Positions 5,159-60,952 are shown, counted from the first letter of the stretch. The stretch: 64,000 nucleotides of DNA from Candidatus Nanopelagicales bacterium (GCA_037046735.1 JBAOHC010000027.1:12307-76306); one strand, 5' to 3'. The notes: generated by a model from the letters alone, not told the origin. A program made the numbers and translations.

Positions 5159-6277
5159 CTAGATATCCACCACGATCAGGTCGTGCGGGCGGTTGTTGCA
5201 GCTCACGTACCCGGTTTCGGTGCAGACCACGATGTCCTCGATGCGCGCCCCGTGCGATCCGGCGCGGTAGACACCCGGCTCGATGCTGAAGGCCATCCCG
5301 GGTTCCAGGGGTCGGTGATTGCCGACGATGATGTACGGCTCCTCATGCGTTTCCAGCCCGATCCCATGGCCGGTGCGGTGGATGAAGTACTCCCCGAGCC
5401 CTGCCGTCGTGAGGTAGTCCCGGGCCACGGCGTCGATGGCCTCGCAGCTGATTCCAGGCCGCACCGCCGCCACGGCAGCGGCCTGCGCCAAGCGCAGCAC
5501 CTCGAACTCCTCGCGCACCGCGGTCGACGGCTCGCCCAGAGAGTACATGCGGGTGGAGTCGCTGCAGTACCCGTCGGGCATCGTGCCCCCAATGTCGACC
5601 ACTACCGAATCCCCGACCGCCAGCACCCGATCGGAGAGCTCATGGTGGGGACTGGCCCCGTTCGGCCCTGACGCCACGATCACGAAGTCCACAGTGGCGT
5701 GGCCCGCCGCGATGATCGCATCGGCGATGTCGGCGCCCACTTCCCGTTCGGTCCTGCCGGGTCGTAGCCACTGCGCGACCTGGGCGTGCACGGAGTCGAT
5801 GGCAGCCCCTGCGGCCACCAGCGCAGCGATCTCGGACGGGGATTTCCGCATCCGGAGCTCCTGGACGACCGGACCCGCCGCCACCTGGTGGGCCGAGGGC
5901 ATCGCGTCGCGCAGCGCCAGTACCTTGGATGCCCACATATGGTCATCGACGGCGACCCGCCGGGCCACGGGCAGTAAGGACGCCGTCAGCGCGAAGGGGT
6001 CCTCGGTCTCCTCCCAGGCCACAACTTCCACGTCCAGAGCCGCGAGCGGACTGGCCAGTGCCGCCGGGACCTCCAAGCCGGGCACGACAATGCGCGGATG
6101 AGCACTGGTGGACAGCACCAGGCACGTCAACCGCTCCAGGGGGATGGCGTCATACCCGGTCAGGTACCTCAGATCGGGCCCCGGCGACACGAGAACGGCA
6201 TCCAGCCCGGCAACGGCAGCGGCCTGCACGCAGCGGCTGAGTCGGTCCTTGAGATCAGCGACGTCAACGATGTCCAT
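5159..6277 (-). CDS. M24 family Xaa-Pro dipeptidase/aminopeptidase
   Basis: HRTGHGIGLETHEEPY motif. The start is placed at internal ATG 6277 (MDIVDVADLKDRL), which avoids an implausible 62-aa extension. Confidence 0.85.
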   Translation of the reverse strand: MDIVDVADLKDRLSRCVQAAAVAGLDAVLVSPGPDLRYLTGYDAIPLERLTCLVLSTSAHPRIVVPGLEVPAALASPLAALDVEVVAWEETEDPFALTASLLPVARRVAVDDHMWASKVLALRDAMPSAHQVAAGPVVQELRMRKSPSEIAALVAAGAAIDSVHAQVAQWLRPGRTEREVGADIADAIIAAGHATVDFVIVASGPNGASPHHELSDRVLAVGDSVVVDIGGTMPDGYCSDSTRMYSLGEPSTAVREEFEVLRLAQAAAVAAVRPGISCEAIDAVARDYLTTAGLGEYFIHRTGHGIGLETHEEPYIIVGNHRPLEPGMAFSIEPGVYRAGSHGARIEDIVVCTETGYVSCNNRPHDLIVVDI

Positions 6278-6338: not shown

Positions 6339-7247
6339 ATGAGCCGACCCGTGATGCTGCTGGACACCGCGTCGCTGTACTTCCGTGCGTTCTTCGGCGT
6401 CCCCGACACCCGTCGCAGTGCGGATGCCCCACCGACCAACGCAGCCAGCGGGCTCCTCGACATGATCGCTCGCCTGATGCGGGATCATTCTCCGTCGTCG
6501 GTGGTGGCGTGTTGGGACAACGACTGGCGCCCGGCGTTCCGGGTCGACGCCCTGCCGTCCTACAAGCAACACCGCGTAGCCACTGGCGCCGAGGAAGAGG
6601 TACCGGATCTGTTGCAGGAACAGATCCCGTTGATCGAGGCGATGCTGGTCGCGGCGGGTATCCCACCCATCGGCGCCGATGGTCACGAAGCCGATGACGT
6701 GATCGGGACGTATGCCACCAACGCCGCCCGTCCGGTGGACGTCGTCACCGGTGACCGTGACCTCTTTCAGATCGTCGATGACCAGCGCGACGTCCGCGTT
6801 CTCTACACCGCGCGGGGCATCTCCAAGCTGCAGGTGGTCGACGGCGTCTACGTCGCGCAGAAGTACGGCGTCACCCCGGCCCAATACGCTGATATGGCGA
6901 CTCTGCGCGGCGATCCCAGCGACGGTCTGCCCGGAGTGGCGGGCATCGGGGAGAAGACGGCCGCCTCCCTGCTGCGCTCTTTCGGTGACCTTGCGGGGGT
7001 GCGGACGGCCGCCGCGGACCCGACCAGTTCCATGACCCCGCGCCTGCGCGGTTCGATAACGGCTGCGACCGACTACCTCGACCGTGCACCCTCGGTGGTG
7101 CAGGTGGTCACTGATCTGGACCTGCCACCACTGCCGGCCGGGCCGCCACAGCCCGACGATGCCTTGCTGGACCTGATCGGAGAGGAGTTCGGTATCGGAT
7201 CGTCGATCTCCCGATACCGCGTTGCCCTGGCTTCCTCACACCTCTGA
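6339..7247 (+). CDS. 5'-3' exonuclease (FEN-like, Rv2090-type)
   Basis: MLLDTASLYFRAFFG N-terminus and an H3TH segment GVAGIGEKTAASLL. Confidence 0.85.
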   Translation: MSRPVMLLDTASLYFRAFFGVPDTRRSADAPPTNAASGLLDMIARLMRDHSPSSVVACWDNDWRPAFRVDALPSYKQHRVATGAEEEVPDLLQEQIPLIEAMLVAAGIPPIGADGHEADDVIGTYATNAARPVDVVTGDRDLFQIVDDQRDVRVLYTARGISKLQVVDGVYVAQKYGVTPAQYADMATLRGDPSDGLPGVAGIGEKTAASLLRSFGDLAGVRTAAADPTSSMTPRLRGSITAATDYLDRAPSVVQVVTDLDLPPLPAGPPQPDDALLDLIGEEFGIGSSISRYRVALASSHL

Positions 7248-47335: not shown

Positions 47336-47899
47336 ATGGATGACGCCGCTCTGTGGAGCGCCTACGCGTGGCCCGACGAGTGCCTGCGGGTCAATTTTGT
47401 GATCAGCCTCGACGGACACATCGGCGCTCCCGACGGCCTCAGCGGCGGCCTGAGCAGCCCCGAGGATCGACGCGTGTTCCACATGCTGCGGGCGGGCTGT
47501 GACGCGATCCTGGTCGGCGCTGGCACCGCGCGCACCGAGGGGTACCGGGCGCCGGCTGTGAAACTGGAGTGGCAGCAGTTTCGGCAACGATCAAAAGCGC
47601 CTGTCCTGGTTATGGTCTCGGCCAGCGGGAACGTTCCCGATATTGAAGGGGCGGTGACAGTGGACGGCACAGACCTGGCAGCAGTGATCGCGCAGTACCC
47701 ACGGATCTTGTGTGAGGGCGGGCCGCACTTGTTCGCGTCCCTGCTGGAGCAGCGGCTCGTGGATGAGGTGGCCTTGAGCATCAGCGGGCAGGTCGGGGGT
47801 ACCGGCAGGCTGCTTCCCGATGAGGTCCGCGCCAGCTTCACCCCTCGCCACGCGCACACCGCAGACAACACGATCTTCACGCTGTGGCGGAGATCATGA
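47336..47899 (+). CDS. RibD C-terminal-domain/dihydrofolate-reductase-like family protein
   Basis: VNFVISLDGHIG...SSPEDRRVFHMLRAGCDAILVGAGTARTEGY. Confidence 0.7.
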   Translation: MDDAALWSAYAWPDECLRVNFVISLDGHIGAPDGLSGGLSSPEDRRVFHMLRAGCDAILVGAGTARTEGYRAPAVKLEWQQFRQRSKAPVLVMVSASGNVPDIEGAVTVDGTDLAAVIAQYPRILCEGGPHLFASLLEQRLVDEVALSISGQVGGTGRLLPDEVRASFTPRHAHTADNTIFTLWRRS

Positions 47900-48954
47900 T
47901 CGCCCCGATGCTCGCCAAGGCGGTCGGCGACAAGGTGCCCGACGGCCCAGGCCTGCTCTACGAACCGAAGTGGGACGGCTTCCGCTGCATCGTATTCCGC
48001 GGCGAGACAGTGGTGCTGCAGAGCCGCAAGGAGGAGGACTTCTCGTATCTGTTCCCGGAGGTCGTGGCGGCCTGTGAACGCCTGCCTGCCGGCACCACCC
48101 TGGATGGCGAGCTGGTCATCGTCGGCGAGTCGGGCCTGGAGTTCGACTTGTTGAGCAACCGCATCCGGCCCCGCTCGGAGGCCGGCGGGTGGAAGATCAC
48201 CTCCCTATCCGAGGCAACCCCCGCGCAGTTCGTGGCATTCGACTGCCTCGAGTTCGGCGGGGACGACATCAGTCAGCAACCGTTCGCCGACCGTCGGCGC
48301 GTCCTGGAGGGCATCGATCTGCCCGCCGGCATGCACCTGACACCGATCACCGACGATCCGCAGGTGGCCCGGGACTGGTTCAGCCTCTTCGAAGGTGCTG
48401 GGCTCGACGGCGTGGTGTGCAAACCCGCCGATGCGCAGTACACCCCCGGAAAACGCACCATGCTGAAGGTCAAACACGTGCGCACCGCTGACGTGGTGGT
48501 GGCCGGGTGGCGACCCTACAAGAATGCCGCGCCCGACCGTTCCGCGATGGTTGGCGCACTGCTGCTCGGGCTCTATGACGAGGACGGGATGCTGCACAAC
48601 GTGGGGGCCGCGGGGTCGTTCACCCGTGAGGTGCGGATGGCCCTGGCCAAGGAGCTGGCCGCGATCGAGATCGGTCCCGACGACGACCATCCGTGGAAGT
48701 GGGGTGCGGACGGCCAGCGCGTGCCCGGGATGGTGTCGCGCTGGTCCGGCAAGAAGGACATGGGTTTTCGGCCGCTGCAACCGGTGCTCGTCGCCGAGGT
48801 CAAGTACGACCACATGCAGGGTGACCGGTTCCGGCATGTGGCGTCCTTCGTGCGGTGGCGTCCGGACCGTGAACCGAGCAGTTGCACCTACGAGCAACTC
48901 GACCGACCTGTCCGCTTCGACGTGGCAGCGGTCCTCGCCGGGGAGGTGCGCTGA
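47896..48954 (+). CDS. ligC: ATP-dependent DNA ligase (LigC-type)
   Basis: YEPKWDGFRC adenylation motif I (KxDG). Start at ATG 47896, overlapping the upstream stop (ATGA). Confidence 0.9.
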   Translation: MIAPMLAKAVGDKVPDGPGLLYEPKWDGFRCIVFRGETVVLQSRKEEDFSYLFPEVVAACERLPAGTTLDGELVIVGESGLEFDLLSNRIRPRSEAGGWKITSLSEATPAQFVAFDCLEFGGDDISQQPFADRRRVLEGIDLPAGMHLTPITDDPQVARDWFSLFEGAGLDGVVCKPADAQYTPGKRTMLKVKHVRTADVVVAGWRPYKNAAPDRSAMVGALLLGLYDEDGMLHNVGAAGSFTREVRMALAKELAAIEIGPDDDHPWKWGADGQRVPGMVSRWSGKKDMGFRPLQPVLVAEVKYDHMQGDRFRHVASFVRWRPDREPSSCTYEQLDRPVRFDVAAVLAGEVR

Positions 48955-50030
48955 TGGCGACCAAGGAGACCTTCATCGAGGTCGGTGGGCGGGAGGTGCG
49001 GGTGTCCAACCCGGACAAGGTCTACTTCCCTGAGCACGGTTACACGAAGCTGCAGGTGGTCCAGTACTACGCGCAGGTGTCGGAGCTGATGCTCACGTAC
49101 GTGGTTGACCGGCCAACGGCGCTGGAACGCTGGCCCGACGGGGTGCTGCCCGGTGTGACGATGGCCCAGCGTGGCCGGCGGGTGAACCCGGGCGAGGCGT
49201 TCTACCAGAAGCGCATTCCGAAACACGCGCCCGACTGGATCAAGAGCGCCCAGATCGCCTTCCCGTCGGGCCGTACCGCCGATGAGATCACTCCCACGGA
49301 GCCGGCGGTGATTGCTTGGTGCGCCAACCTGGGCACCATCGTGTTCCATCCGTGGGCGGTGACCGCACCTGACGTGGACCACCCAGATGAGTTGCGCCTG
49401 GATCTGGACCCGCAACCTGGCACCGACTTCCGCGACGCGGTCGAAGCAGCATGGGTGATGCGCGAGATCCTCGAGGAACTGGGGATGACCGGATGGCCGA
49501 AGACGTCCGGGGGCAGGGGTCTGCACGTGTTCATCCCCATCGAGGCGCGCTGGGACTTCATCGATGTGCGCCACGCCGCGATCGCCATCGGCAGGGAAAT
49601 GGCACGTCGCGTGCCGGACCTGGTGACCGTCGAATGGTGGAAGGAGAACCGCGGGGAACGCATCTTCCTGGACTACAACCAGAACGCCCGGGACCGCACC
49701 ATCGCGAGCGCGTTTTCGGTGCGGCCACGGCCCAACGCGCCGGTGTCCACTCCCCTGCGCTGGGACGAGCTGGAGGGCACCGAACCTGGCGATTGGACGA
49801 TCGCCACTGTTCCCGATCGGGTGGCAGATCTGGGTGACGTGCATGCCGAACGCTGGGGTCAGGCCTTCGATCTCACGCCTGCTCTCGAGCTGTACGACGG
49901 CGATGAGATGCCCTATCCGCCTGACTATCCGAAGATGCCCGGCGAACCGAAGCGGGTGCAGCCGAGCCGGAATACCGATCTGACTAGGGGAAATGCTGGA
50001 AAGGGTGGGCTGGACCGTGCGGAGGATTGA
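48954..50030 (+). CDS. LigD-type polymerase/primase (Prim-Pol) domain protein
   Basis: MATKETFIEVGGREVRVSNPDKVYFPE N-terminus, GRGLHVFIP motif, C-terminal YPKMPGEPKRVQPSR. Its ATG overlaps the ligC stop by 1 nt (TGATG). Confidence 0.9.
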   Translation: MATKETFIEVGGREVRVSNPDKVYFPEHGYTKLQVVQYYAQVSELMLTYVVDRPTALERWPDGVLPGVTMAQRGRRVNPGEAFYQKRIPKHAPDWIKSAQIAFPSGRTADEITPTEPAVIAWCANLGTIVFHPWAVTAPDVDHPDELRLDLDPQPGTDFRDAVEAAWVMREILEELGMTGWPKTSGGRGLHVFIPIEARWDFIDVRHAAIAIGREMARRVPDLVTVEWWKENRGERIFLDYNQNARDRTIASAFSVRPRPNAPVSTPLRWDELEGTEPGDWTIATVPDRVADLGDVHAERWGQAFDLTPALELYDGDEMPYPPDYPKMPGEPKRVQPSRNTDLTRGNAGKGGLDRAED

Positions 50031-50033
50031 CGC
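49929..50033 (+). repeat. direct repeat copy 1 (authentic 3' end of the LigD-pol gene)
   Basis: This 105-nt segment recurs at 51351-51455 (90/105 identical, ungapped, hand alignment). Its first 42 nt recur at 51082-51123 (40/42). Confidence 0.85.
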
Positions 50034-50240
50034 ACAGCGCAAGCTCGCCGGAATACCTTCCGTCGCTCGCGCATGATGCCCTTGGAGATCGCCGTCGGGT
50101 CGGTCTTCTCACCGCGTCAAACGTCCTCTTGACAAAATGAGAAATCCCTTTGAGACGTGGAGGCACTTGCCGCCGAAAGGGTGCTGGAGTTGGGTGATGT
50201 CATCAGCCACGTCCGGACTGGAGTACGACCGCAGCCCTGC

Positions 50241-50612
50241 CTACTCTCCGATGAAGGGCAGTACCCGCACCCGCTGTCGACCCGGCTCTAGCGTGATCAA
50301 GGCTCCTGATTCCAGCTCGCTGGCCATCTGCGCGACGGTTGAGATCAGCATCGGCGCCAACGCCTCAGGCCGCAGATCACCACCGCGAAGCTGGACGACG
50401 CTCGGGCCGGCGGCGCCCGATGAGGCCAGCATGGAACCGAAGTCCAGGTCATTGGTCAAAACGACAGCGTCGCGGTGCCTGGCAGTCTGCATGATCACCA
50501 CGTCGGCATCCGTTGCTTCACCGATTTCCGACCAATGCTCGGCATCCAACCCGGCGTCGCGCAGCCAATCAGCCCAGCGTGGAGAAAGGTTCATGTCAAC
50601 GATGAACCTCAT
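50241..50612 (-). CDS. DUF5615 PIN-like putative toxin
   Basis: MRFIVDMNLSPRWADWLRDAGLDAEHW...VVLTNDLDFGSML. ATGA overlap with the upstream DUF433 gene. Confidence 0.75.
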   Translation of the reverse strand: MRFIVDMNLSPRWADWLRDAGLDAEHWSEIGEATDADVVIMQTARHRDAVVLTNDLDFGSMLASSGAAGPSVVQLRGGDLRPEALAPMLISTVAQMASELESGALITLEPGRQRVRVLPFIGE

Positions 50613-50839
50613 GCAGTTTCGAGCTCGATCTCCCGCTCCTCGGCCAGCCAGGCGGCGTACCGGAGTGCCTGAAGAACGTCTTCACGCTCAAGGTAGGGGT
50701 AGTCGGACAGCAGACCGTCGATTGTCACTCCCGAACCGATCTGCCCCACGATCATGCCCACCGTCACCCTCATCCCGCGGATGCAGGGACGCCCGCCCAT
50801 GACCGCAGGATCACGGGTGATCCGATCCAACGTCGCCAT
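50609..50839 (-). CDS. DUF433 putative antitoxin
   Basis: Start at ATG 50839, after a GGGAGG RBS. ITRDPAVMGGRPCIRGMRVTVGMIV...DYPYLEREDVLQALRYAA. Confidence 0.8.
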   Translation of the reverse strand: MATLDRITRDPAVMGGRPCIRGMRVTVGMIVGQIGSGVTIDGLLSDYPYLEREDVLQALRYAAWLAEEREIELETA

Positions 50840-51008
50840 GTGAGCCTCCCTTTGGTGTAGCGGTGCAAGTCTACGGCCATGTGCAATTCCCCGGCTGTCC
50901 GCGAGAGCGTTCTGTGAACCTCGTGAGCATAGGCCAGGAATCGCTCCGACCACAATCCGTTAAGTCTTCAAGCAGTGTGCTCCGGCATCGAAGAAACCAA
51001 GGTCGCGG

Positions 51009-51123
51009 ATTCGCCGGAATATCTCGTCACACCTCGCACCCCACTCCCCTTCGTGACGCACACGGTTACCCCATGAACACTCCGAAGATGCCCGGCGAGC
51101 CGAAACGGGTGCAGCCGAGCCGG
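51009..51123 (+). repeat. direct repeat copy 2 (73-nt module plus truncated LigD-pol 3' end remnant)
   Basis: 51009-51081 aligns with 51278-51350 (62/73). 51082-51123 aligns with 49929-49970. The remnant stays open in the LigD frame (GFAGISRHTSHPTPLRDAHGYPMNTPKMPGEPKRVQPSRARD-stop). Confidence 0.8.
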
Positions 51124-51277
51124 GCGCGGGACTGAGTCCATGCTGATCGCCGCGCTAGGTGACGTTGTGCAGTTGGGTGGGGTTCGTCGCAGCCTGAGCG
51201 TCAACCAACTACCCGAACGCCATCCAACGCGACGACCCGCGACTACATCGGCATCGCTCGCGCGGGGTGCCACGACG

Positions 51278-51455
51278 ATTCGCCGGAATATCTTGTCGCA
51301 CAGCGCACCCCCCTCCCCCTCACGACGCACACCGTCACCCCGTGAACACTCCGAAGATGCCTGGCGAACCGAAGCGCGTGCAACCGAGCAGGAATACGGA
51401 TCTGACCAGGGGAAATGCTGAATAGGATGGGCGGGGCAAAGCGGAGGACTGACGC
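51278..51455 (+). repeat. direct repeat copy 3 (73-nt module plus full-length LigD-pol 3' end remnant)
   Basis: See copies 1 and 2. The remnant reads FAGISCRTAHPPPPHDAHRHPVNTPKMPGEPKRVQPSRNTDLTRGNAE-stop and ends 3 nt before the stop of the channel gene. Confidence 0.8.
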
Positions 51456-51458
51456 CGG

Positions 51459-52262
51459 TCAATTCTGGCCAGATTCGCCGGCCCGCTGCTGGATGGTCTG
51501 GTTGAGCCTCGAAACCGTTTCCCGCAGTTCAGCCACCTCGGTGCGTAGGGCCTGCGCATCTTCAGCGGTCAAAGCGGAGCCTTCGGCGGAGTTGCTCTTC
51601 TCGTCACCGAGAATCCAGGCGACGAGTTTGGCAGTGAACATACTCGCAGCCAGGATGCCGCAGACGCTGACGACCACACCCAGGAACTTTCCGTCCGGCG
51701 TGGTGGGCGCGAAGTCCGTCCCAGTCTCGATGTGCAGCAGACTGCCGAAAGCCCAAGCGAAGGCGTCCCCGGGTCCATGGATGCCGGAAGACTCCTGATT
51801 GTTCTCCAACTCCACCATCGTCAGCCCGGACATGACGCCCACGAACACGATCAGGACGAAGGAGAACGTGAAGCCGTCGCCCGCAGACAGTTGCCGCAAC
51901 TCCAGAATGAAGGCTACGACGATCAAGATGAACCAGACCGGATCCCAGAAGAGGATCAGGAACAGCGGCGCGATGAGCAGCATCGGTAGCGCCGGACGGC
52001 GCAGGACGAACGCGAGTCGACCGGTTTGGCCGCGCACCTGCCGGATCCACATGATCAGGAGCCAGACCCATAGGACCGCCACTATGGCGTTCAGAATCCG
52101 CACCGTCGAAGGACCCCAGTGGCCGAAGCCGGCGAGGATGATCGTCAGGCAGTAGACGGATATGAAGGCAAGGCGCGCGATCGCAGGCCAGGACTCCGAC
52201 AGCGGCGGGCGTCGAGCTGGCTCTATCTCAGCCGCCACGGGCATCTCTTCTGCCGAGGACAT
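51459..52262 (-). CDS. ion-channel family protein (K-channel-like pore with non-canonical filter) with C-terminal coiled coil
   Basis: About 5-6 TM helices. The pore region is GDAFAWAFGSLLHIETGTDFAPTTPDGKFLGVVVSVCGIL. The C-terminal LTAEDAQALRTEVAELRETVSRLNQTIQQ is coiled-coil-like. Hand-sampled GC is lower (52-60%). Confidence 0.65.
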   Translation of the reverse strand: MSSAEEMPVAAEIEPARRPPLSESWPAIARLAFISVYCLTIILAGFGHWGPSTVRILNAIVAVLWVWLLIMWIRQVRGQTGRLAFVLRRPALPMLLIAPLFLILFWDPVWFILIVVAFILELRQLSAGDGFTFSFVLIVFVGVMSGLTMVELENNQESSGIHGPGDAFAWAFGSLLHIETGTDFAPTTPDGKFLGVVVSVCGILAASMFTAKLVAWILGDEKSNSAEGSALTAEDAQALRTEVAELRETVSRLNQTIQQRAGESGQN

Positions 52263-52319: not shown

Positions 52320-53249
52320 TCAGTCCGAAATGGACCCGGGTTCCATTGCGGGCTCGAGGTCACCTGCCAGGCCGTCAGCGAACAGATCGACCACACCCGC
52401 CGGCCGGCCGGCCATGTCGTGCATACTCAGCCACAGCATGTTCGGGCTCATGCGCGACCAGAAGTAGTAGTCGAGATTGGTGAGGTCCACAGCGCTGATC
52501 CAACGCGTCGGATAGATGTCGCCCTCCGGATAGGGCGCCCCAAAGGGCTTGGCCACGGTGGAAAGGACCTGAAACACCTCAGCGACGGTCTCGCGATTGT
52601 CCGCGGGCTCGGGAAGGTAGTGGTGGAAGTACGAGGCTCGAACGAACCTGTCCAGCGACGTGATGTCCCCGGGTGGTGGCAGTTCACCGCCGAACGGGCG
52701 GTACTTCGACCGGTTGGCGAGATGTTCGTCCAGGCTGGGTGAGTTCGTCATGATCTGGTGCTGGTGGCCGTGGTGAACCACCATGCGCCCGTTGACCGGC
52801 TCCACGATCGCTGAGTCGCCGGAGGCGTCCTCCAGTGCGAGGTGGACCCCGAGGTGAAGACCCTCCAGGAGCGACGGTGTAACCCGCATACCAGCCAGAC
52901 CCTCGACCGCCTCGGCAACGGTGCCGAACAGGTCCAGCGCGAAGTTGACCCAGCGCAGCGTCGACAGCACAGGACGGTCATCCGGTGGTTCGTACACAGC
53001 CGAGGTGTACATCAGCGCGTGTGCGCCTAGGCCATGGTCGTTCATGCCGTCCACGGCAGCGTCCTGCCACTCAGCGATGGTGAGGCTCGCGTACTTCGAT
53101 GTCCACGTCCAATCGCGGTCGGGGTGGGCCTTCCGGACCTGCCCGGCGGGTAACCACCACAGGTGAGGCACGTCCAGGAAACTGGCATCAAGGGTCCTGC
53201 CCGCCACCTTGGCCGTGCTGTTCTCGCAGCAGAACACGCGGGTGCACAT
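52320..53249 (-). CDS. linear amide C-N hydrolase, choloylglycine hydrolase/penicillin V acylase family (Ntn)
   Basis: Starts MCTR (Cys2 nucleophile after Met removal) and has no signal peptide. 309 aa. Confidence 0.75.
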   Translation of the reverse strand: MCTRVFCCENSTAKVAGRTLDASFLDVPHLWWLPAGQVRKAHPDRDWTWTSKYASLTIAEWQDAAVDGMNDHGLGAHALMYTSAVYEPPDDRPVLSTLRWVNFALDLFGTVAEAVEGLAGMRVTPSLLEGLHLGVHLALEDASGDSAIVEPVNGRMVVHHGHQHQIMTNSPSLDEHLANRSKYRPFGGELPPPGDITSLDRFVRASYFHHYLPEPADNRETVAEVFQVLSTVAKPFGAPYPEGDIYPTRWISAVDLTNLDYYFWSRMSPNMLWLSMHDMAGRPAGVVDLFADGLAGDLEPAMEPGSISD

Positions 53250-53446
53250 GACCTGAGGCTAAAGCCTGCGACCAGCGTGGGGCGGGGCGAACTCGCCCCT
53301 CGCCCGCGCGAGGCACACTGTCGTCGCTGAACTCTGACAATATGCCGCCGCATTGAGCGTCTTCGACAACGCCCAGCGGGCTTACGATGGTCATGTAGCG
53401 GGTGGGGGGCCGGCGCCCGTCCGACACCTCCCCGTGGGGGTGTGTG

Positions 53447-56402: not shown

Positions 56403-58106
56403 TCAGCTCGCAGTCCCGTCAGCCTCCATCTGCGCCACCAAACGGGCAGTCTCGGCCGGTGTCCAGTCCTGCGGCTGGGTCATCGCGGCCCAGGCCTCGG
56501 TGTTCGACTGTGGCGAGTACATATGCCCGTGCCCGATAGGCACCGATCCGGCGGCTGGCAGGTCCAACGCCACCTGCCACATCGTCACCAGCGGCACCCA
56601 CACCATCTCTTTCGGAATGTCCGGTCCCCGCTGCCCCTCCAGCAGCCACTCCGGCTCCTCATAGGCGAGGTTCTGGTTGAAGAACACCACGGGGTCGGAG
56701 GAGTGCTGCAAGTAGACAAGCCTCGTCGGTCCCCAGTTCTGCTCCACCACCGCGTTGATCTGCGAGCCTGACGATGTGAACTGGACGGTCCGCCCGCCCT
56801 CAAAAGCGGGTAGCCAGGCCTGACTGCCCGGGTCCCGGTCGGCCTCGATGTCGTTGTGCAGCGAGTTCACGAACGGCGGGCCCGACATGAAGGCACCATC
56901 GATCGGTTCGTTGAGCACGTTGATCGAATTCAGGATGCTTTCGACGCCGTAAGAGCCCAACGACAGGCCATAGAGGTACAAGTCGGGCCGCGAGTCCTCC
57001 GGCAGCGTCGCCCAGTAGTCGTGAACCGTGTCGAACACAGTGCGGGAGGTGTCCTTGACGGCCTGCTGATCGGCGAGCAGTGAGATCCAACTCGGCAGGA
57101 ACGAGTACTGCACCCCGGCGATCGCGGTGTCGCCGTTATACATGTACTCCAGCGGATCGATCCCCGCCGGATCCAGGAATCCCGTGCCTGTCGTGGTGGC
57201 CACGACGAGGACCTCGCGGTCGAACGCACCCGTGCGCTGCAACTCCGCCAGGAGCAGGTCGGCCCGCTTCTGCAAATCGGCCTCCGTGTCCAGCCCGACG
57301 TACACACGGATCGGCTCGATGGCCCCACCCCCGCTGAACTCATCGATCTGCTCAACAGTGGGTCCCGTCGCCACGAAGTCCCGGCCTTTGCGGCCCAGGG
57401 ATTCCCAGGTGACCGCGGACTCGGGGCCCCCCGAGCGCAGCATCGAGGTGGTCGGGACCACCCCTTCGCTGGTTGCGGTGTCCCGCGTCGAGAACATGGC
57501 GTTGGCGCCGTCAAAGAAGCCGCGGACCAGCACCCCGGTGATCAGCGACCACAGCAGGACCACGATGACCCCTACGCTGATCAGTTGCGACAGCCGAGGC
57601 GGGAAGATCCTGTTGAGCAGGCGAGTTCCGAACTTCGCGAGCTTGCGCAAGGACCTCGCGACGATCAGTATCAGGGCGGCGACCAGAACGGTCACGACCA
57701 CGATGACTGGCCAGACGCTCGGCGAGATCGGATCCTTGGCGAAGATGGTTCGAAGCTCGTTCTGCCAGCCGACGTAGCGCCAGATGGATGACGCCACAGC
57801 CAGACCCACAAGAACCCACAGGATGCCCGTGACCCACCGCGCGACCTTGACCGGCAGGGAGGGGATCTGCAGATATCGCCACAGTGTCTGCAACCCAACC
57901 CCGATGAGGTATCCGACCATGATCGTGATCCCGGAAGCGATGCCCTGTAGGTATCCGGCGCGGGGCAATAGGGACGGGAACAGCGAGAACGCGAAGAACA
58001 GAACGGCGAACCAGATCCCGACCCCACTGAAGGTCACAGAGAACACCCGGAAGCCGCGCTTGCGCTCTTCCACGGGAATGAGCGGGACCTCGGTGTCTGT
58101 AGCCAT
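56403..58106 (-). CDS. membrane-anchored alpha/beta-hydrolase family protein (Abhydrolase_9-like)
   Basis: Start at ATG 58106, after GAGGGAG. The N-terminal half has several TM helices. The C-terminal half has a hydrolase-like core (LYLYGLSLGSYG nucleophile elbow). Confidence 0.7.
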   Translation of the reverse strand: MATDTEVPLIPVEERKRGFRVFSVTFSGVGIWFAVLFFAFSLFPSLLPRAGYLQGIASGITIMVGYLIGVGLQTLWRYLQIPSLPVKVARWVTGILWVLVGLAVASSIWRYVGWQNELRTIFAKDPISPSVWPVIVVVTVLVAALILIVARSLRKLAKFGTRLLNRIFPPRLSQLISVGVIVVLLWSLITGVLVRGFFDGANAMFSTRDTATSEGVVPTTSMLRSGGPESAVTWESLGRKGRDFVATGPTVEQIDEFSGGGAIEPIRVYVGLDTEADLQKRADLLLAELQRTGAFDREVLVVATTTGTGFLDPAGIDPLEYMYNGDTAIAGVQYSFLPSWISLLADQQAVKDTSRTVFDTVHDYWATLPEDSRPDLYLYGLSLGSYGVESILNSINVLNEPIDGAFMSGPPFVNSLHNDIEADRDPGSQAWLPAFEGGRTVQFTSSGSQINAVVEQNWGPTRLVYLQHSSDPVVFFNQNLAYEEPEWLLEGQRGPDIPKEMVWVPLVTMWQVALDLPAAGSVPIGHGHMYSPQSNTEAWAAMTQPQDWTPAETARLVAQMEADGTAS

Positions 58107-58504
58107 ACGTTCTCCCTCAATGGTTTCGCAACGGTGGTTCCGTGCCATCGCCCGTGGCGCGGCTCACCGCAATCAGCCGGCTGGCGGTGCCGGACAGCAC
58201 CGGTGCCGCATGTGCGGTCCCAGCTGCCTGTGTCACTGCGTAGTCTCCCATCGCACTATGGTGCCTACGCTTGGCGCCCCCGACTGGCGCTGAACGTGGC
58301 TCGACCGATCCCATAGTGCGTGGATATCCCTGTGCCGAAGGTCTGTGTCCCCGCACTGGCCGCTCGGGGTTGTGAAGTCCTGATACGACGGCGAAGTGAT
58401 CCAGAACGTGCCTACCAACCAGTCCGTCAACCCAGCAGGGCTTGATTTTCACACACGCAGATGCGGGTGACACCCTCTCCAGGCTGCGACCCGCACCTGC
58501 CTGA

Positions 58505-60952
58505 CTACTTGCCCGGCTTGCCGATGTACTGCGTCACCTTGTCCTTGTTGGACGGTGTGACCGAGATGTTGCCCAAGAACTGGACCGTCAGCTTGACCTT
58601 GCCCTTCGGTCCGATCTTGGACCACTTCCTGGGCAGGGAGATCGTGCGAGTGCCGTCCTTGGGCAGCGTCACCGAGGTGTAGCGCAGAACCGCGTTCGTG
58701 TTGACTGCTCGCACACCGATATCGCCGGTCTTGGCCCCCTTCGTCGTGACCTTGACCGTGAGCCGGATGTGCTTGCCCGCTTTGATCGTGGCCGGGCTGA
58801 CGAGCTTCGCCCTGATCTTCGAACTGACAGAAGGCCCGAGCGGCACGAGAGTGGTGAACGCCGGCACAACCGGCGGGTACTGACCCAGTAGCGTCGCCGA
58901 CAGCATGTTTGCGTACTGCTGCTGGCCCACCTCGTTCGGATGGAATCCGACGCCGGTGCCCTTCGCGGCTGTGGTGTCGACGATGTAGTCCGTCAGGCTC
59001 GTGACCCACCGGGTTGGGGAGCACATGCCGTGCGGGTGACTTGCCCGGTACATCGAGAAGGCCGTGTTCCAGCCGTAGGTCGCCGCGTTGTTCTCGATCT
59101 GCGCGACAAGCCCGTTGACCGGTACCTCGATGCGGTTGTCCAGGCGGGTGTTCGGTGCCCCGAGGGGCGGATTGGTGGCCGGATTGAACGGACCGAACCC
59201 GGTCACGACCGGACTCAGCGCCGGGACGTTGCTCGGGAACGACGTGGTCTGCGGGACGGCGACCACATCGTGGCCGGCCTGCCCCTCATAGAGCACGTTG
59301 TACGCCCAGGCGTTGTCGATCTGGTTGAGCGGCGACATCAACGGGTTGGTGAGCATCTGCTCGATCGTCGGGAAGTTGATGTTACTCGGCTCCGGCAGGC
59401 CAGCGGGATTCTTCAGCGTCAACTGCCCTCCCCACGGCTGCGTCGGGTCCTGCTGGACGCCGCAGAACTCGGTGTTGCCCGGGGTGCCCTTCTGCGTCAG
59501 GTCGGGATACATGGCCTGGGTCAGGTTCCCGATCTTGGTGTATTTGACGGGCGTGGACGCGGTGAAGCCGGGCTGAGGCACCCCATTGACCAGTTTCTGG
59601 GTCTTGCAGTCAGGTGCACCCCCGGTCGCACCGAGGCAGGGCGCGAGTTTCGCATAGTCCTGTTGCAGCATTGTGAGGTTGTTGAAGACGGCCTCTTCGA
59701 GTTCGGGATTGTCCTGGACCGGGTCGGGAGCGTCAGGATCGGAGGTGAGGCAGCGATACCCTCCCACATCGCCGGGGGTGATCAGGTTCATGTCGCCGAT
59801 CAGGGTGAGTAGCCCGCCGAGGTCATTGAACGAGCCGCTGGGTCCATTGGGCGCACATGTGAATGTGATGTCCTGCAGGTTGGCGAGGTCCAGCTTGCCA
59901 GAGACCTGCGCCCCGTCCTGACAGTTGGGGAAGCCCTGGATCTTGGATTTGAGGATCCCGGAGATGCCGCTGTCCGGGAACCCGTTGATGACCACCGGCA
60001 GGACGTCGGTCGCGACGCAACTGAGGATGACTGGGGACAACCCGGCGTCGTTGCCGCCGATCGAGAGCAACCCGGCGTCGTAGGTCTGGTTCCCCGCGAT
60101 GGCGGCCAACTGGTCGATCTGCGGGGGCATGTAGTCGCCGGGACCGGTGTTGCTCTGTTGCGACGGCTGTTTGATCTTCTTCTGCGGCGACAACAGGCCA
60201 CCGTTCGGCGAGACGGCTGGGTTGTTCGGTTGCTCCAGAATCTCGCCCCCGGAGCACGCCACGTCCACGACCGTCACGTTCGATCGGGGATCCGACTGCT
60301 CCAGGGTGAGCGCGGCTCGCACGAACCCGCTCCACCGTGACCTGTCACAGGCCGGCTCATCCCAGTCGATCGTCCCGTCCGCATTGCGGAACGGCGGGAA
60401 GCCTTCACCCGACGCGTAGGAGTCCCCGGCAATGCTCATCAGCGTGTTGCGAACCGTGATGCTGCTCGACACGGTTTTCGTCACTGAGGTCTTGGTGTCC
60501 GTGACGGCCAGCTGCAGCGGGAAAGTCCCCTCCGGCAGCGACGCGTTCAGCGGGGTACTGCACGGCTGGCCCGCGTAGGTCGAGACGGGATTGGTCGAGA
60601 GGGTCCAGGTGCATGACAACTGGGTGGGCAATCCGCCGCCCACCGTCGAGGCCCCCGCGTTGAGGACTACTTGGAAGAGCCCGTCTGCGGGTAGGGGTCC
60701 GTAGAGCGCATTGCCCGCGGCCTGATAGCCGGGTACCGGCTGCATCGGCTGGTCGGGGATGCCCGGGTACTGGTCGGTGTCGGTCATGGATGCCGGCATC
60801 GACCAGTCCCACTGCACGTTGATGCTGCCCCAATCAGCGGCGGCCTGCGTGTTCGCGTTCTGCCCGATATCCGCCGACGCACTTCCCGGGATCAGTAGCG
60901 CCGCTGTCACGGCGACCGCGGTCACGGCCGCCGACATTCTGCCTAGTCTCAC
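58505..60952 (-). CDS. large secreted SGNH/GDSL-family hydrolase with N-terminal Ig/PKD-like and C-terminal Ig-like regions
   Basis: Signal peptide ending in ASA. Block I IAGDSYASGEG, block III SIGGND, block V-like GFHPNEVG. 815 aa. Confidence 0.65.
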   Translation of the reverse strand: MRLGRMSAAVTAVAVTAALLIPGSASADIGQNANTQAAADWGSINVQWDWSMPASMTDTDQYPGIPDQPMQPVPGYQAAGNALYGPLPADGLFQVVLNAGASTVGGGLPTQLSCTWTLSTNPVSTYAGQPCSTPLNASLPEGTFPLQLAVTDTKTSVTKTVSSSITVRNTLMSIAGDSYASGEGFPPFRNADGTIDWDEPACDRSRWSGFVRAALTLEQSDPRSNVTVVDVACSGGEILEQPNNPAVSPNGGLLSPQKKIKQPSQQSNTGPGDYMPPQIDQLAAIAGNQTYDAGLLSIGGNDAGLSPVILSCVATDVLPVVINGFPDSGISGILKSKIQGFPNCQDGAQVSGKLDLANLQDITFTCAPNGPSGSFNDLGGLLTLIGDMNLITPGDVGGYRCLTSDPDAPDPVQDNPELEEAVFNNLTMLQQDYAKLAPCLGATGGAPDCKTQKLVNGVPQPGFTASTPVKYTKIGNLTQAMYPDLTQKGTPGNTEFCGVQQDPTQPWGGQLTLKNPAGLPEPSNINFPTIEQMLTNPLMSPLNQIDNAWAYNVLYEGQAGHDVVAVPQTTSFPSNVPALSPVVTGFGPFNPATNPPLGAPNTRLDNRIEVPVNGLVAQIENNAATYGWNTAFSMYRASHPHGMCSPTRWVTSLTDYIVDTTAAKGTGVGFHPNEVGQQQYANMLSATLLGQYPPVVPAFTTLVPLGPSVSSKIRAKLVSPATIKAGKHIRLTVKVTTKGAKTGDIGVRAVNTNAVLRYTSVTLPKDGTRTISLPRKWSKIGPKGKVKLTVQFLGNISVTPSNKDKVTQYIGKPGK

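Follow-up and report, generated by a model that had tools for sequence, protein, structure and literature searches.

We propose that the 3' end of a stand-alone LigD primase-polymerase gene (ligD-pol) serves as attB, the chromosomal attachment site, for one family of genomic islands that a small XerC/D-like tyrosine integrase would mobilise, and we give this reading, jointly with the division of the locus into the three units described below, a probability of about 0.8. Repeats of the gene's 3' end, integrase genes at the same site in relatives, arrays of further units, integrase stubs inside some of these units, and haplotype and inter-species breaks at att boundaries were all observed. They support tandem accretion of site-specific islands, like that of tycheposons or CIMEs, rather than an integron.

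In the window, by which we mean the whole 64-kb stretch of DNA analysed, an ATP-dependent DNA ligase gene (47884-48954, plus strand; Pfam DNA_ligase_A_M E 4e-30 and DNA_ligase_A_C E 1.3e-12) is the upstream partner of ligD-pol (48954-50030, plus strand; 358 aa; Pfam LigD_Prim-Pol E 1.4e-92), and the order AFG1, RibD_C, ligase and LigD Prim-Pol is common to all related loci. Repeat search and realignment confirmed that the last 42-105 nt of ligD-pol have two further copies downstream, and the identities that a sequence-only reading had counted by hand were reproduced exactly: 40 of 42 positions between core copy 1 (49929-49970) and core copy 2 (51082-51123), 90 of 105 without gaps between 49929-50033 and 51351-51455 (core plus tail), and 62 of 73 between the two copies of a non-coding module; the repeat search gives matching families, D1 and D2. 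A 39-nt core pattern occurs three times in the window against 0.00 expected from 100 shuffles, and core copy 3 (51351-51392) was located by this pattern and by alignment; all three cores lie on the plus strand. The 73-nt module precedes both downstream cores (about 51008-51081, family D1, and about 51277-51350, both plus strand; nhmmer E 2.4e-32 and 1.1e-32, respectively, for module plus core) and, as the same reading had stated, is absent upstream of the gene's own copy. As in genomic islands, inserted DNA in the window has copies of the target's 3' end, in direct orientation, on both sides. No tRNA gene was found in the 64-kb window.

Core copy 1, the putative attL core, carries the codons for PKMPGEPKRVQPSR, a conserved sequence with which LigD-pol naturally ends. 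From this core ligD-pol runs on into tail A (49971-50058, plus strand), the putative P' arm, which provides replacement C-terminal codons up to the stop at 50028-50030, leaving the target gene intact, and continues with CGCACAGCGCA (50031-50041) and TCGCCGGAATACCT (50045-50058). LigD-pol proteins of relatives are alignable only to about residue 339-345 unless tail A is also present, and the last 20 codons of the gene (tail A) are accordingly best read as probably element-derived, a status different from that implied for the gene's own copy by the sequence-only reading. Three tail classes were found, all of which preserve PKMPGEPKRVQPSR. Behind core copy 2, tail B (51124-51276, plus strand) encodes ARD and a stop followed by about 140 nt of non-coding DNA, and behind core copy 3, tail A' (51393-51455, plus strand), a second type-A P' arm, is cut short by the neighbouring gene. 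Two smaller claims about these repeats held only in part. The short motif TTCGCCGGAATATCT said to recur at four sites is present at 51010 and 51279 without mismatches and at 50044 with two, whereas the fourth site, 51473-51481 behind tail A', is a 9-nt partial match only (ATTCGCCGG). Both downstream remnants are indeed open in the LigD frame, but this has no meaning because module copies show no codon periodicity (variability by phase 0.10/0.12/0.10 among 31 distinct copies).

The evidence for the integrase comes from relatives. Five independent sets of their contigs show a gene for a XerD-like tyrosine integrase that begins 32-90 nt 3' of the ligD-pol stop, after tail A or tail C, the same sequences that are found behind cores. 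The integrase of contig L001 is a 306-aa tyrosine recombinase starting 32 nt past the stop (PF00589 E 2e-27), with R158, K182, H249, R252, W275 and Y284 as candidate catalytic residues assigned by motif rather than by alignment, and the closest solved structure to the integrase is XerD. Its island has a GC content of 0.59-0.61 versus 0.62-0.70 upstream, and a module plus core (L091, 3900-4011) closes it at a distance of about 23.6 kb. The closure of this integrase-bearing island of about 24 kb, along with the module plus core that borders every unit of the relatives' arrays, supports the sequence-only reading. The homologues P0002, P0005, P0008 and P0011 (57-91% identity) all lie directly 3' of ligD-pol; for P0008 and P0011 the whole AFG1, RibD_C, ligase and ligD-pol context is visible, and for P0002 and P0005 the contigs hold the end of the preceding ORF only, with the core present. 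In the collection, 211 blocks are indexed for P0011, and at least 18 contigs carry P0008. Tail A is homologous to the stretch between core and integrase start in L001, L096, L102 and L129, and corresponds to the stretch 5' of the integrase in the L001, P0002, P0005 and P0008 islands, as tail C does for P0011; tails of type B have no more than 13 nt in common past the core, and none was seen next to an integrase. Integrase islands at the exact site, preceded by tail A, agree with successive site-specific insertions at the 3' end of ligD-pol as earlier proposed. An integrase lies beside the att site in L001, L096-L105 and L127-L129 but not within the window, and the earlier statement that the window has no integrase or transposase holds for relatives of the ligD-specific integrase, none of which was found there by tblastn; for other recombinases, it extends to the part of the window's ORFs covered by the Pfam scan. 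Every relative compared is a MAG or a metagenome contig, and chimeric assembly could account for some of the junctions.

In several relatives the site has grown into arrays. BC1.147 carries eight full and two partial copies of module plus core within 32 kb 3' of ligD-pol, and another five MAGs, as well as 13 metagenome stretches, contain two to five, all copies within a contig being in one orientation. The cargo of these arrays includes surface proteins, toxin-antitoxin pairs and small operons. Just behind the core, some integrase-less units retain an integrase stub, which is 63 codons long in L106 (E 3.6e-15) and 14 codons long in L087 and L086, where its E value of about 0.05-0.07 alone is supported by position. 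The persistence of such stubs inside integrase-less units shows that deletion gave rise to at least some of these units, in agreement with the previous suggestion of decayed islands.

In the mechanism we propose, attP would consist of the 73-nt non-coding module as P arm, a core of 35-42 nt identical to the ligD-pol codons for PKMPGEPKRVQPSR, and the tail as P' arm, which would give the new terminal codons and stop and would be directly followed by the integrase gene. Integration, presumably catalysed by the XerD-like integrase with a crossover probably within the core, would produce the order ligD-pol, core, tail, island, module, core and previous tail. Later arrivals would enter at the gene-proximal core and displace older units outward, and internal deletions would take out the integrase and most genes, leaving cargo between att repeats. 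As judged from the tails, the C-terminal end of LigD-pol would be rewritten by each insertion.

Applied to the window, this mechanism gives three units: tail A with a toxin-antitoxin pair, the cargo-less tail B, and tail A' with a channel-like gene, all of which are probably integrase-less derivatives rather than complete islands. Unit 1 (49971-51123) begins with the P' arm of integrase-bearing islands, ends with module plus core, and has as its only Pfam content the pair that had been noticed between repeat copies 1 and 2, namely a DUF5615/PIN-like putative toxin (50241-50612, minus strand; DUF5615 E 4.1e-23, PIN_10 E 1.5e-6) and a DUF433 putative antitoxin (50609-50839, minus strand; E 4.3e-23), the 76-aa call for the latter being taken from the corresponding L119 locus. 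The two genes are adjacent and overlap by 4 nt, as is typical of the type II toxin-antitoxin pair that they are predicted to form. With att-type sites of an integrative element family at both ends and without recombination genes, unit 1 has the structure of a CIME. For the mobilisation of such elements by a complete one that integrates next to them, the inter-species similarity of an integrase-less unit in relatives, described below, gives indirect support. It is 85% identical to relatives versus about 80% for ligD, figures that do not separate transfer from descent. The sequence of the second unit also occurs elsewhere: window positions 51067-51369 are 86% identical to L002 6961-7285, which lies directly 3' of ligD-pol. 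The third unit carries a membrane protein gene of 267 aa (51459-52262, minus strand), and copy 3 ends 3 nt before its stop (51459-51461). Its position and lower GC content (62.3% versus 66.2% for the window) are as previously described, but its identity as an ion channel is weak (Ion_trans_2 E 0.0027, 18 bits, under the 22.5-bit cut-off), and we refer to it as weakly channel-like. The distal module of this unit would have been lost or decayed; in L082 an orthologue with 87% amino acid identity lies between two copies of module plus core (5795-5909 and 7126-7233). The array is invariant in the window's species, with the same gene spacing in the 8 contigs listed among at least 23, which come from different samples and all encode an identical LigD-pol protein. 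Because of this lack of polymorphism, the units in this species look like fixed fossils with no sign of current activity.

Small units may nevertheless still move in relatives. A tentative alternative, which we consider possible but clearly less probable than simple accretion and decay, is that the 3' end of ligD-pol is a cassette-capture platform where integrase-less units of 0.3-6 kb are exchanged in trans, also between species: the integrase of a resident island would excise them as circles and re-insert them, in an integron-like manner but on double-stranded att sites. Excision between two cores would restore a full attP (module, core and tail) for each unit, and the module, though non-coding, is conserved across species, with consensus identity of 90% or more in most of its alignment columns. 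Two signs of mobility in relatives also support the main reading. The BC1.147 population contains two array haplotypes whose flanks are 99.5-99.7% identical, and their breakpoints lie exactly where a core ends and where a module starts. Furthermore, the two species HK-STAS and BC1.147 share a 6-kb integrase-less FG-GAP/RCC1 unit at 92-96% identity, as against 76-80% for the flanking genes; the similarity begins at the core, and the unit stands first in the array of one genome and second in that of the other. The ordinal positions of RelE/Phd and DUF433/DUF5615 units likewise vary between genomes. Integrase-less units may still move by site-specific recombination, but the stubs indicate a deletion origin for at least some of them, homologous recombination on repeats of 42-115 nt could achieve the same exchange, the array is fixed in the window's species, and cargo on both strands would need its own promoters, unlike integron cassettes. 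The sequence-only reading had called for a comparison of empty and filled sites; occupied and alternative-site variants exist in the BC1.147 haplotypes and between HK-STAS and BC1.147, with none in the listed contigs of the window's species, whereas neither a truly empty attB nor an excised circle was seen among the MAGs and metagenome contigs compared.

The same breakpoints bear on a further and rather unlikely explanation, in which RecA-type homologous recombination alone has shuffled the arrays after a few ancient integrations, with no present role for site-specific recombination. Repeats of this length at 80-95% identity are adequate homology anchors, and haplotype breakpoints on repeat edges are predicted by either mechanism. 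However, several integrase subfamilies with intact genes, such as P0011 and P0008, are present at the site in many samples, and the possession of its own tail class by each subfamily argues for continuing integration.

It seems quite improbable that the module acts as a structured RNA or host regulatory element instead of a recombination arm. Its conservation is high for non-coding DNA and it holds three GTGAC-type half-sites in alternating orientation, but Rfam gave nothing for it at E up to 1, it has no sigma-70-like promoter or terminator, and module plus core folds as single-stranded DNA no better than shuffles do (z -0.54 to +0.99 for five sequences: one copy on both strands and three further copies). 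With one truncated exception, it is found only in ligD-pol arrays and at the island end. A point against the main reading, in which the module is an arm, is the integrase itself. For a two-domain integrase of the L001 type, a 73-nt arm is not expected as a requirement. Brujita Gp33 (PDB 5vfz), a distantly similar (E 4.9e-6) small two-domain tyrosine integrase of an actinobacteriophage without an arm-binding domain, targets a tRNA gene, and a conserved arm like that at ligD-pol is not expected for arm-less integrases of its type.

A reading without any mobile element, in which the gene's 3' end was duplicated locally in tandem and unrelated insertions followed, would be allowed by the window alone (three direct repeats, no integrase) but is very improbable in view of the missing module upstream of the gene's copy, similarity of module copies that is about as high between genomes (0.79) as within them (0.81), and relatives that carry differing cargo between the same repeats, integrase-bearing islands, arrays, haplotypes and the shared 6-kb unit, and not the same copies in the same positions with a module found nowhere else, as had been anticipated for an ancient duplication. 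Least probable of all is collapse or expansion of repeats in assembly, the artefact that the sequence-only reading had allowed for: repeats can break assemblies, as in L110 with a module at both contig ends, but nothing of this is specific to the window, whose spacing recurs in the listed contigs from different samples and assemblers and whose copies, being 5-15% different, would not collapse.

Among known systems, the tycheposons of Prochlorococcus are a close analogue. According to their description (bioRxiv 10.1101/2020.12.28.424599), elements with tyrosine recombinases enter a single site again and again, older ones are displaced deeper by each new arrival, and the islands contain scattered integrase fragments and extra partial target copies; some elements carry primase- or helicase-type replication genes, a further likeness. 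As described there, they use tRNA targets in marine cyanobacteria, whereas here a protein-coding gene for DNA repair is targeted at its 3' end and the hosts are high-GC Actinomycetota. Moreover, the ligD-pol repeat includes a 73-nt element arm, and its integrase clade is unrelated to that of tycheposons as far as tested. With a protein-gene target and no tRNA in the window, the locus is an analogue of tycheposons and not a member. CIMEs and the related ICEs and IMEs of streptococci use 3' ends of protein genes as targets, form att-flanked integrase-less derivatives and accrete in tandem. In contrast to ligD-pol arrays of eight or more units, they usually have one or two, and they are mobilised by conjugation, whereas no conjugation genes were seen at the ligD-pol locus. 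The ssrA-specific islands of Dehalococcoides reportedly also stand in tandem in a high-plasticity region, every island being delimited by a directly repeated 3' end of its target; from what is said of them, they differ from ligD-pol units in having a tmRNA target, a repeat of about 20 nt and serine recombinases, usually one per island. Integration in a conserved housekeeping gene whose displaced end is supplied by the element is described for dusA-specific integrases (PMC4482086) and for SGI1 at the 3' end of trmE (PMC8409611). Target gene, integrase clade and host phylum differ from those at ligD-pol, and these systems are not known for long arrays.

Integrons resemble the locus in that small units line up in a single orientation next to a fixed insertion point, carry varied cargo, toxin-antitoxin pairs among it, and each end in a conserved site of about 115 nt. 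Nevertheless, there is no platform with IntI and attI, the genes upstream of the array being the ligase and LigD Prim-Pol; the integrase of relatives is XerD-like and lies inside the mobile island; the sites lack single-stranded DNA hairpins (the z scores given above); cargo occurs on both strands, with the toxin-antitoxin pair and the channel-like gene of the window on the minus strand; and the stubs point to derivation of units from larger islands.

In the literature searched, the conserved C-terminal coding end of a stand-alone LigD primase-polymerase is a new attachment site, and a clade of small tyrosine integrases that corresponds to it occurs in uncultured Actinomycetota associated with wastewater and soil. 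Site-specific accretion there explains how a flexible island of surface proteins, toxin-antitoxin pairs and defence genes builds up beside a DNA-repair operon. To our knowledge integrons are rare in this phylum; if small units are moved in trans, this phylum would have an integron-like system at ligD-pol, a functional counterpart with unrelated recombinase and sites that diversifies surface proteins and toxin-antitoxin modules. The core was also detected by nhmmer in ligD-pol of distant Actinomycetota (Streptomyces, Actinomadura and others), and because it is recognisable in these genera the integrases could serve as actinobacterial site-specific integration tools.

Further along the window, a possible decayed fourth module lies on the plus strand at 53296-53346, in the intergenic region upstream of an RCC1/fn3 gene, with weak evidence (nhmmer score 8.1, E 0.12; about 38 of 51 module matches by eye). 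The arrays of relatives typically include RCC1 genes in their cargo.

The ATP-dependent DNA ligase gene and the stand-alone LigD primase-polymerase gene (ligD-pol, 48954-50030; Pfam LigD_Prim-Pol, E 1.4e-92) occupy 47.9-50.0 kb of the window, and the 3' end of ligD-pol would, in the reading preferred here, be the attachment site (attB) of a family of integrase-encoding islands. The last 42 nt of its conserved coding sequence, hereafter the core (49929-49970, PKMPGEPKRVQPSR), recur at 51082-51123 (40/42 identical) and at 51351-51392, and this pattern, present three times in the window, is expected 0.00 times in shuffles. Copy 1 with its tail is identical to copy 3 at 90/105 nt, and a 73-nt module, 62/73 identical between its two occurrences, precedes both downstream cores. 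These counts of the sequence-only reading were reproduced, and the DUF433/DUF5615 gene pair which it placed between copies 1 and 2, and which makes up the content there, was borne out by Pfam matches. What it called an ion-channel gene at copy 3 is a minus-strand membrane-protein gene whose stop does adjoin the copy, its channel-like match falling below the Pfam threshold.

In a related DNA stretch (L001), a 306-aa tyrosine recombinase begins 32 nt past the ligD-pol stop and starts a lower-GC island, which ends ~23.6 kb on with a module and core at a contig end (L091). A motif search gave R, K, H-x-x-R, W, and Y as candidate catalytic residues; the recombinase is nearest to XerD, XerC, and XerA, and distantly like the arm-less Brujita integrase. 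Among species-representative genomes, a search recovered the genome of L001 itself and, beyond that, just distant homologues (35-42% identity); close homologues (57-91%) came from a large protein database. All four that were traced to contigs lie directly 3' of ligD-pol, with the syntenic upstream block visible for P0008 and P0011, and just the core-containing end of the preceding ORF for P0002 and P0005. Downstream of the integrases are small ORFs, a D5_N/DUF5906 primase-helicase, sometimes a family-A DNA polymerase (in L102), and type I restriction genes. Two integrase islands (L096 11888-20921 and L102 1959-11302) contain TY-Chap-domain proteins, a HIRAN/DUF2510 protein, and type I restriction HsdR, and by gene content each resembles an island or satellite that replicates and carries defence genes; in L106, a HIRAN/DUF2510 gene adjoins a module. 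As the sequence-only reading had supposed for elements at ligD-pol 3' ends, no paper that names ligD as an attachment site came up in the literature outside island catalogues such as TIGER/Islander.

The proposed attP consists of the module, the core, and a tail, and the sequences after the core sort into three tail classes. Tail A starts with GAATACCGAyCTGACCAGGGGAAATGC, followed by CGCACAGCGCA, and is the core-to-integrase stretch in the L001, P0002, P0005, and P0008 islands, and tail C, starting with AAAGGCCAGGTCAGAGG, is that of the P0011 islands. The common part of tail B is only "ARD stop" (13 nt), and no integrase was seen adjoining it. Since every tail class is found both behind the gene and behind modules, the tail A that terminates ligD-pol in the window is derived from an element; tail B follows copy 2, and tail A' follows copy 3. 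The predicted crossover must lie within the 35 nt common to all tail classes, and core polymorphisms, examined for finer mapping, were not cleanly linked to the neighbour on either side. Two short motifs, TTCGCCGGAATATCT and CGCACAGCGCA, occur in both the module and the P' arms, with their order reversed. Most of 31 module copies also conserve three GTGAC-type half-sites that alternate in orientation (GTGACG cacac CGTCAC cc(c/g) GTGAAC, e.g. window 51320-51345), which are candidate protein-binding sites; accessory-protein binding would be the obvious guess for the role of the module. The post-tail motif beside intact or stub integrases reads CTCGCCTAATATCC (e.g. L001 ~7075-7090), with a -10-like TAATAT just 5' of the integrase start, and in integrase-less units (e.g. 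window 50045-50058) it reads CTCGCCGGAATAyCT, resembling the module's copy.

The locus was compared with seven species-level relatives, all MAGs labelled Nanopelagicales, Micrococcales, or Actinomycetota, with LigD-pol identities of 84-92%. The upstream genes are common to 7/7, and downstream of the core all seven differ completely, where the sequence-only reading had considered that relatives might hold the same copies throughout. A 115-nt profile built from module and core found further copies 3' of ligD-pol in 6/7, all in the same orientation within any one contig. In BC1.147, 8 full copies and 2 partial ones lie within 32 kb, counted outside an 8-kb stretch, and there are 2-5 copies in each of the other MAGs. 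Thirteen additional metagenome stretches have 1-3 copies each. The cargo includes secreted repeat proteins (DUF285/Ig, FG-GAP, RCC1, and beta-propellers), DUF433/DUF5615 toxin-antitoxin pairs and, read by eye, putative RelE/Phd-like pairs, a TetR/hydrolase/dehydrogenase trio, GNAT, a beta-lactamase-family protein, ECF sigma factors, and an orthologue of the window's channel-like gene. In another MAG (MFD09964.bin.2.72; L004 79-7038), the ligase/ligD-pol pair is in tandem duplicate. Both copies match the window at 73-76% identity, and a core plus type C tail terminates each of them; the second reads as a single fused ligase-polymerase ORF of 698 aa. In MFD00905.bin.1.260 (L090 2849-2942), the core behind a module breaks off after its first ~16 nt (…GAAGATGCCCGGC) and gives way to unrelated DNA, ~1.1 kb from ORFs which by eye are putative der/cmk-type housekeeping genes. 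This may be the distal end of an array, now truncated, or else a secondary site, and its break point could be a hint to the crossover position.

Two integrase-less units keep an integrase start just after the core: a stub of 63 codons in L106, with 60% identity to integrases of the P0008 type (E 3.6e-15), and one of 14 codons in L087/L086 (E about 0.05-0.07 alone). Thus, at least some of the units arise by internal deletion. In a 4.7-kb contig of BC1.147, the ligD-pol end and a DUF433/DUF5615 unit are followed by a cassette which in the main contig lies 13 kb farther out; the two contigs match at 99.5-99.7% in the flanks, and the core end and the module start are the exact break points. Between BC1.147 and another related MAG, HK-STAS, the housekeeping flanks are 76-80% identical, and an integrase-less FG-GAP/RCC1 unit of 6 kb, at array position 1 in one genome and 2 in the other, is 92-96% identical, with similarity from the core on. 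This comparison shows a recent exchange of the whole unit between species, by the integrase or by homologous recombination on the repeats. It seems rather unlikely that mobilisation of the small units in trans still goes on; if it does, the locus would be integron-like in function. Local duplication, an alternative raised by the sequence-only reading, can be excluded as a recent event because module copies from one genome (0.81) resemble each other no more closely than copies from different genomes do (0.79).

The closest analogues of the ligD-pol arrays are tycheposon islands, the tandem ssrA islands of Dehalococcoides, and CIME/ICE accretion. By the defining features tested, the window locus is not an integron. 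Single-strand folding of module plus core is no better than that of shuffles, and attC-like hairpins were rejected on that ground; a coding role of the module was likewise rejected, codon periodicity being absent from it. An Rfam scan covering 49500-52000 gave no match with E of 1 or less, and a scan of 49800-51700 gave no promoter or terminator.

In the window, unit 1 (49971-51123) comprises tail A, the toxin-antitoxin pair, and a module with core; unit 2 (51124-51392) comprises tail B without cargo and a module with core, and a stretch 86% identical to it lies directly 3' of ligD-pol in L002. Unit 3 begins with tail A', followed by the channel-like gene, and lacks its distal module; the orthologue of this gene in L082 is closed by a further module, and the sole candidate in the window is a weak one at 53296-53346, ahead of an RCC1/fn3 gene. 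The toxin-antitoxin unit is 85% identical to those of relatives vs 80% for ligD, a difference which does not separate transfer from descent. The absence of an integrase noted from the sequence held up: tblastn with a limit of E 1 detected neither remnants nor any relative of the ligD-specific integrase in the window. Layout and spacing are identical, with no array polymorphism, in the 8 contigs examined of at least 23 encoding exactly this LigD-pol; these are from different samples, one labelled wastewater metagenome, which excludes the assembly collapse or expansion once considered. The window units look like fixed remnants.

Genes downstream of the window array are not syntenic in relatives. 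The Abhydrolase_9 gene (56403-58148), used as a marker, gave no right-hand boundary of the variable region, and in relatives it is on other contigs with no module near and non-syntenic flanks. The C-terminal 165 aa of an 815-aa Big_3_5 secreted protein (58505-60952, minus strand) have a truncated counterpart in BC1.147 (L003 9121-9603, 66% identical), just upstream of a module, and therefore the window's surface-protein-rich variable region may reach ~62.8 kb. A spacer part of tail B (51152-51241), which contains the short inverted repeat AGTTGGT…ACCAACT, is repeated in the BC1.147 array at 82% identity (L003 8964-9054 and 6963-7144). A choloylglycine-hydrolase-family gene (52320-53249, 309 aa) is intact in the window and L125, whereas most metagenome copies of the locus (L120-L124, L126) have it split by an IS481-type transposase (rve domain); in several metagenome copies, the RCC1 gene is split in two.
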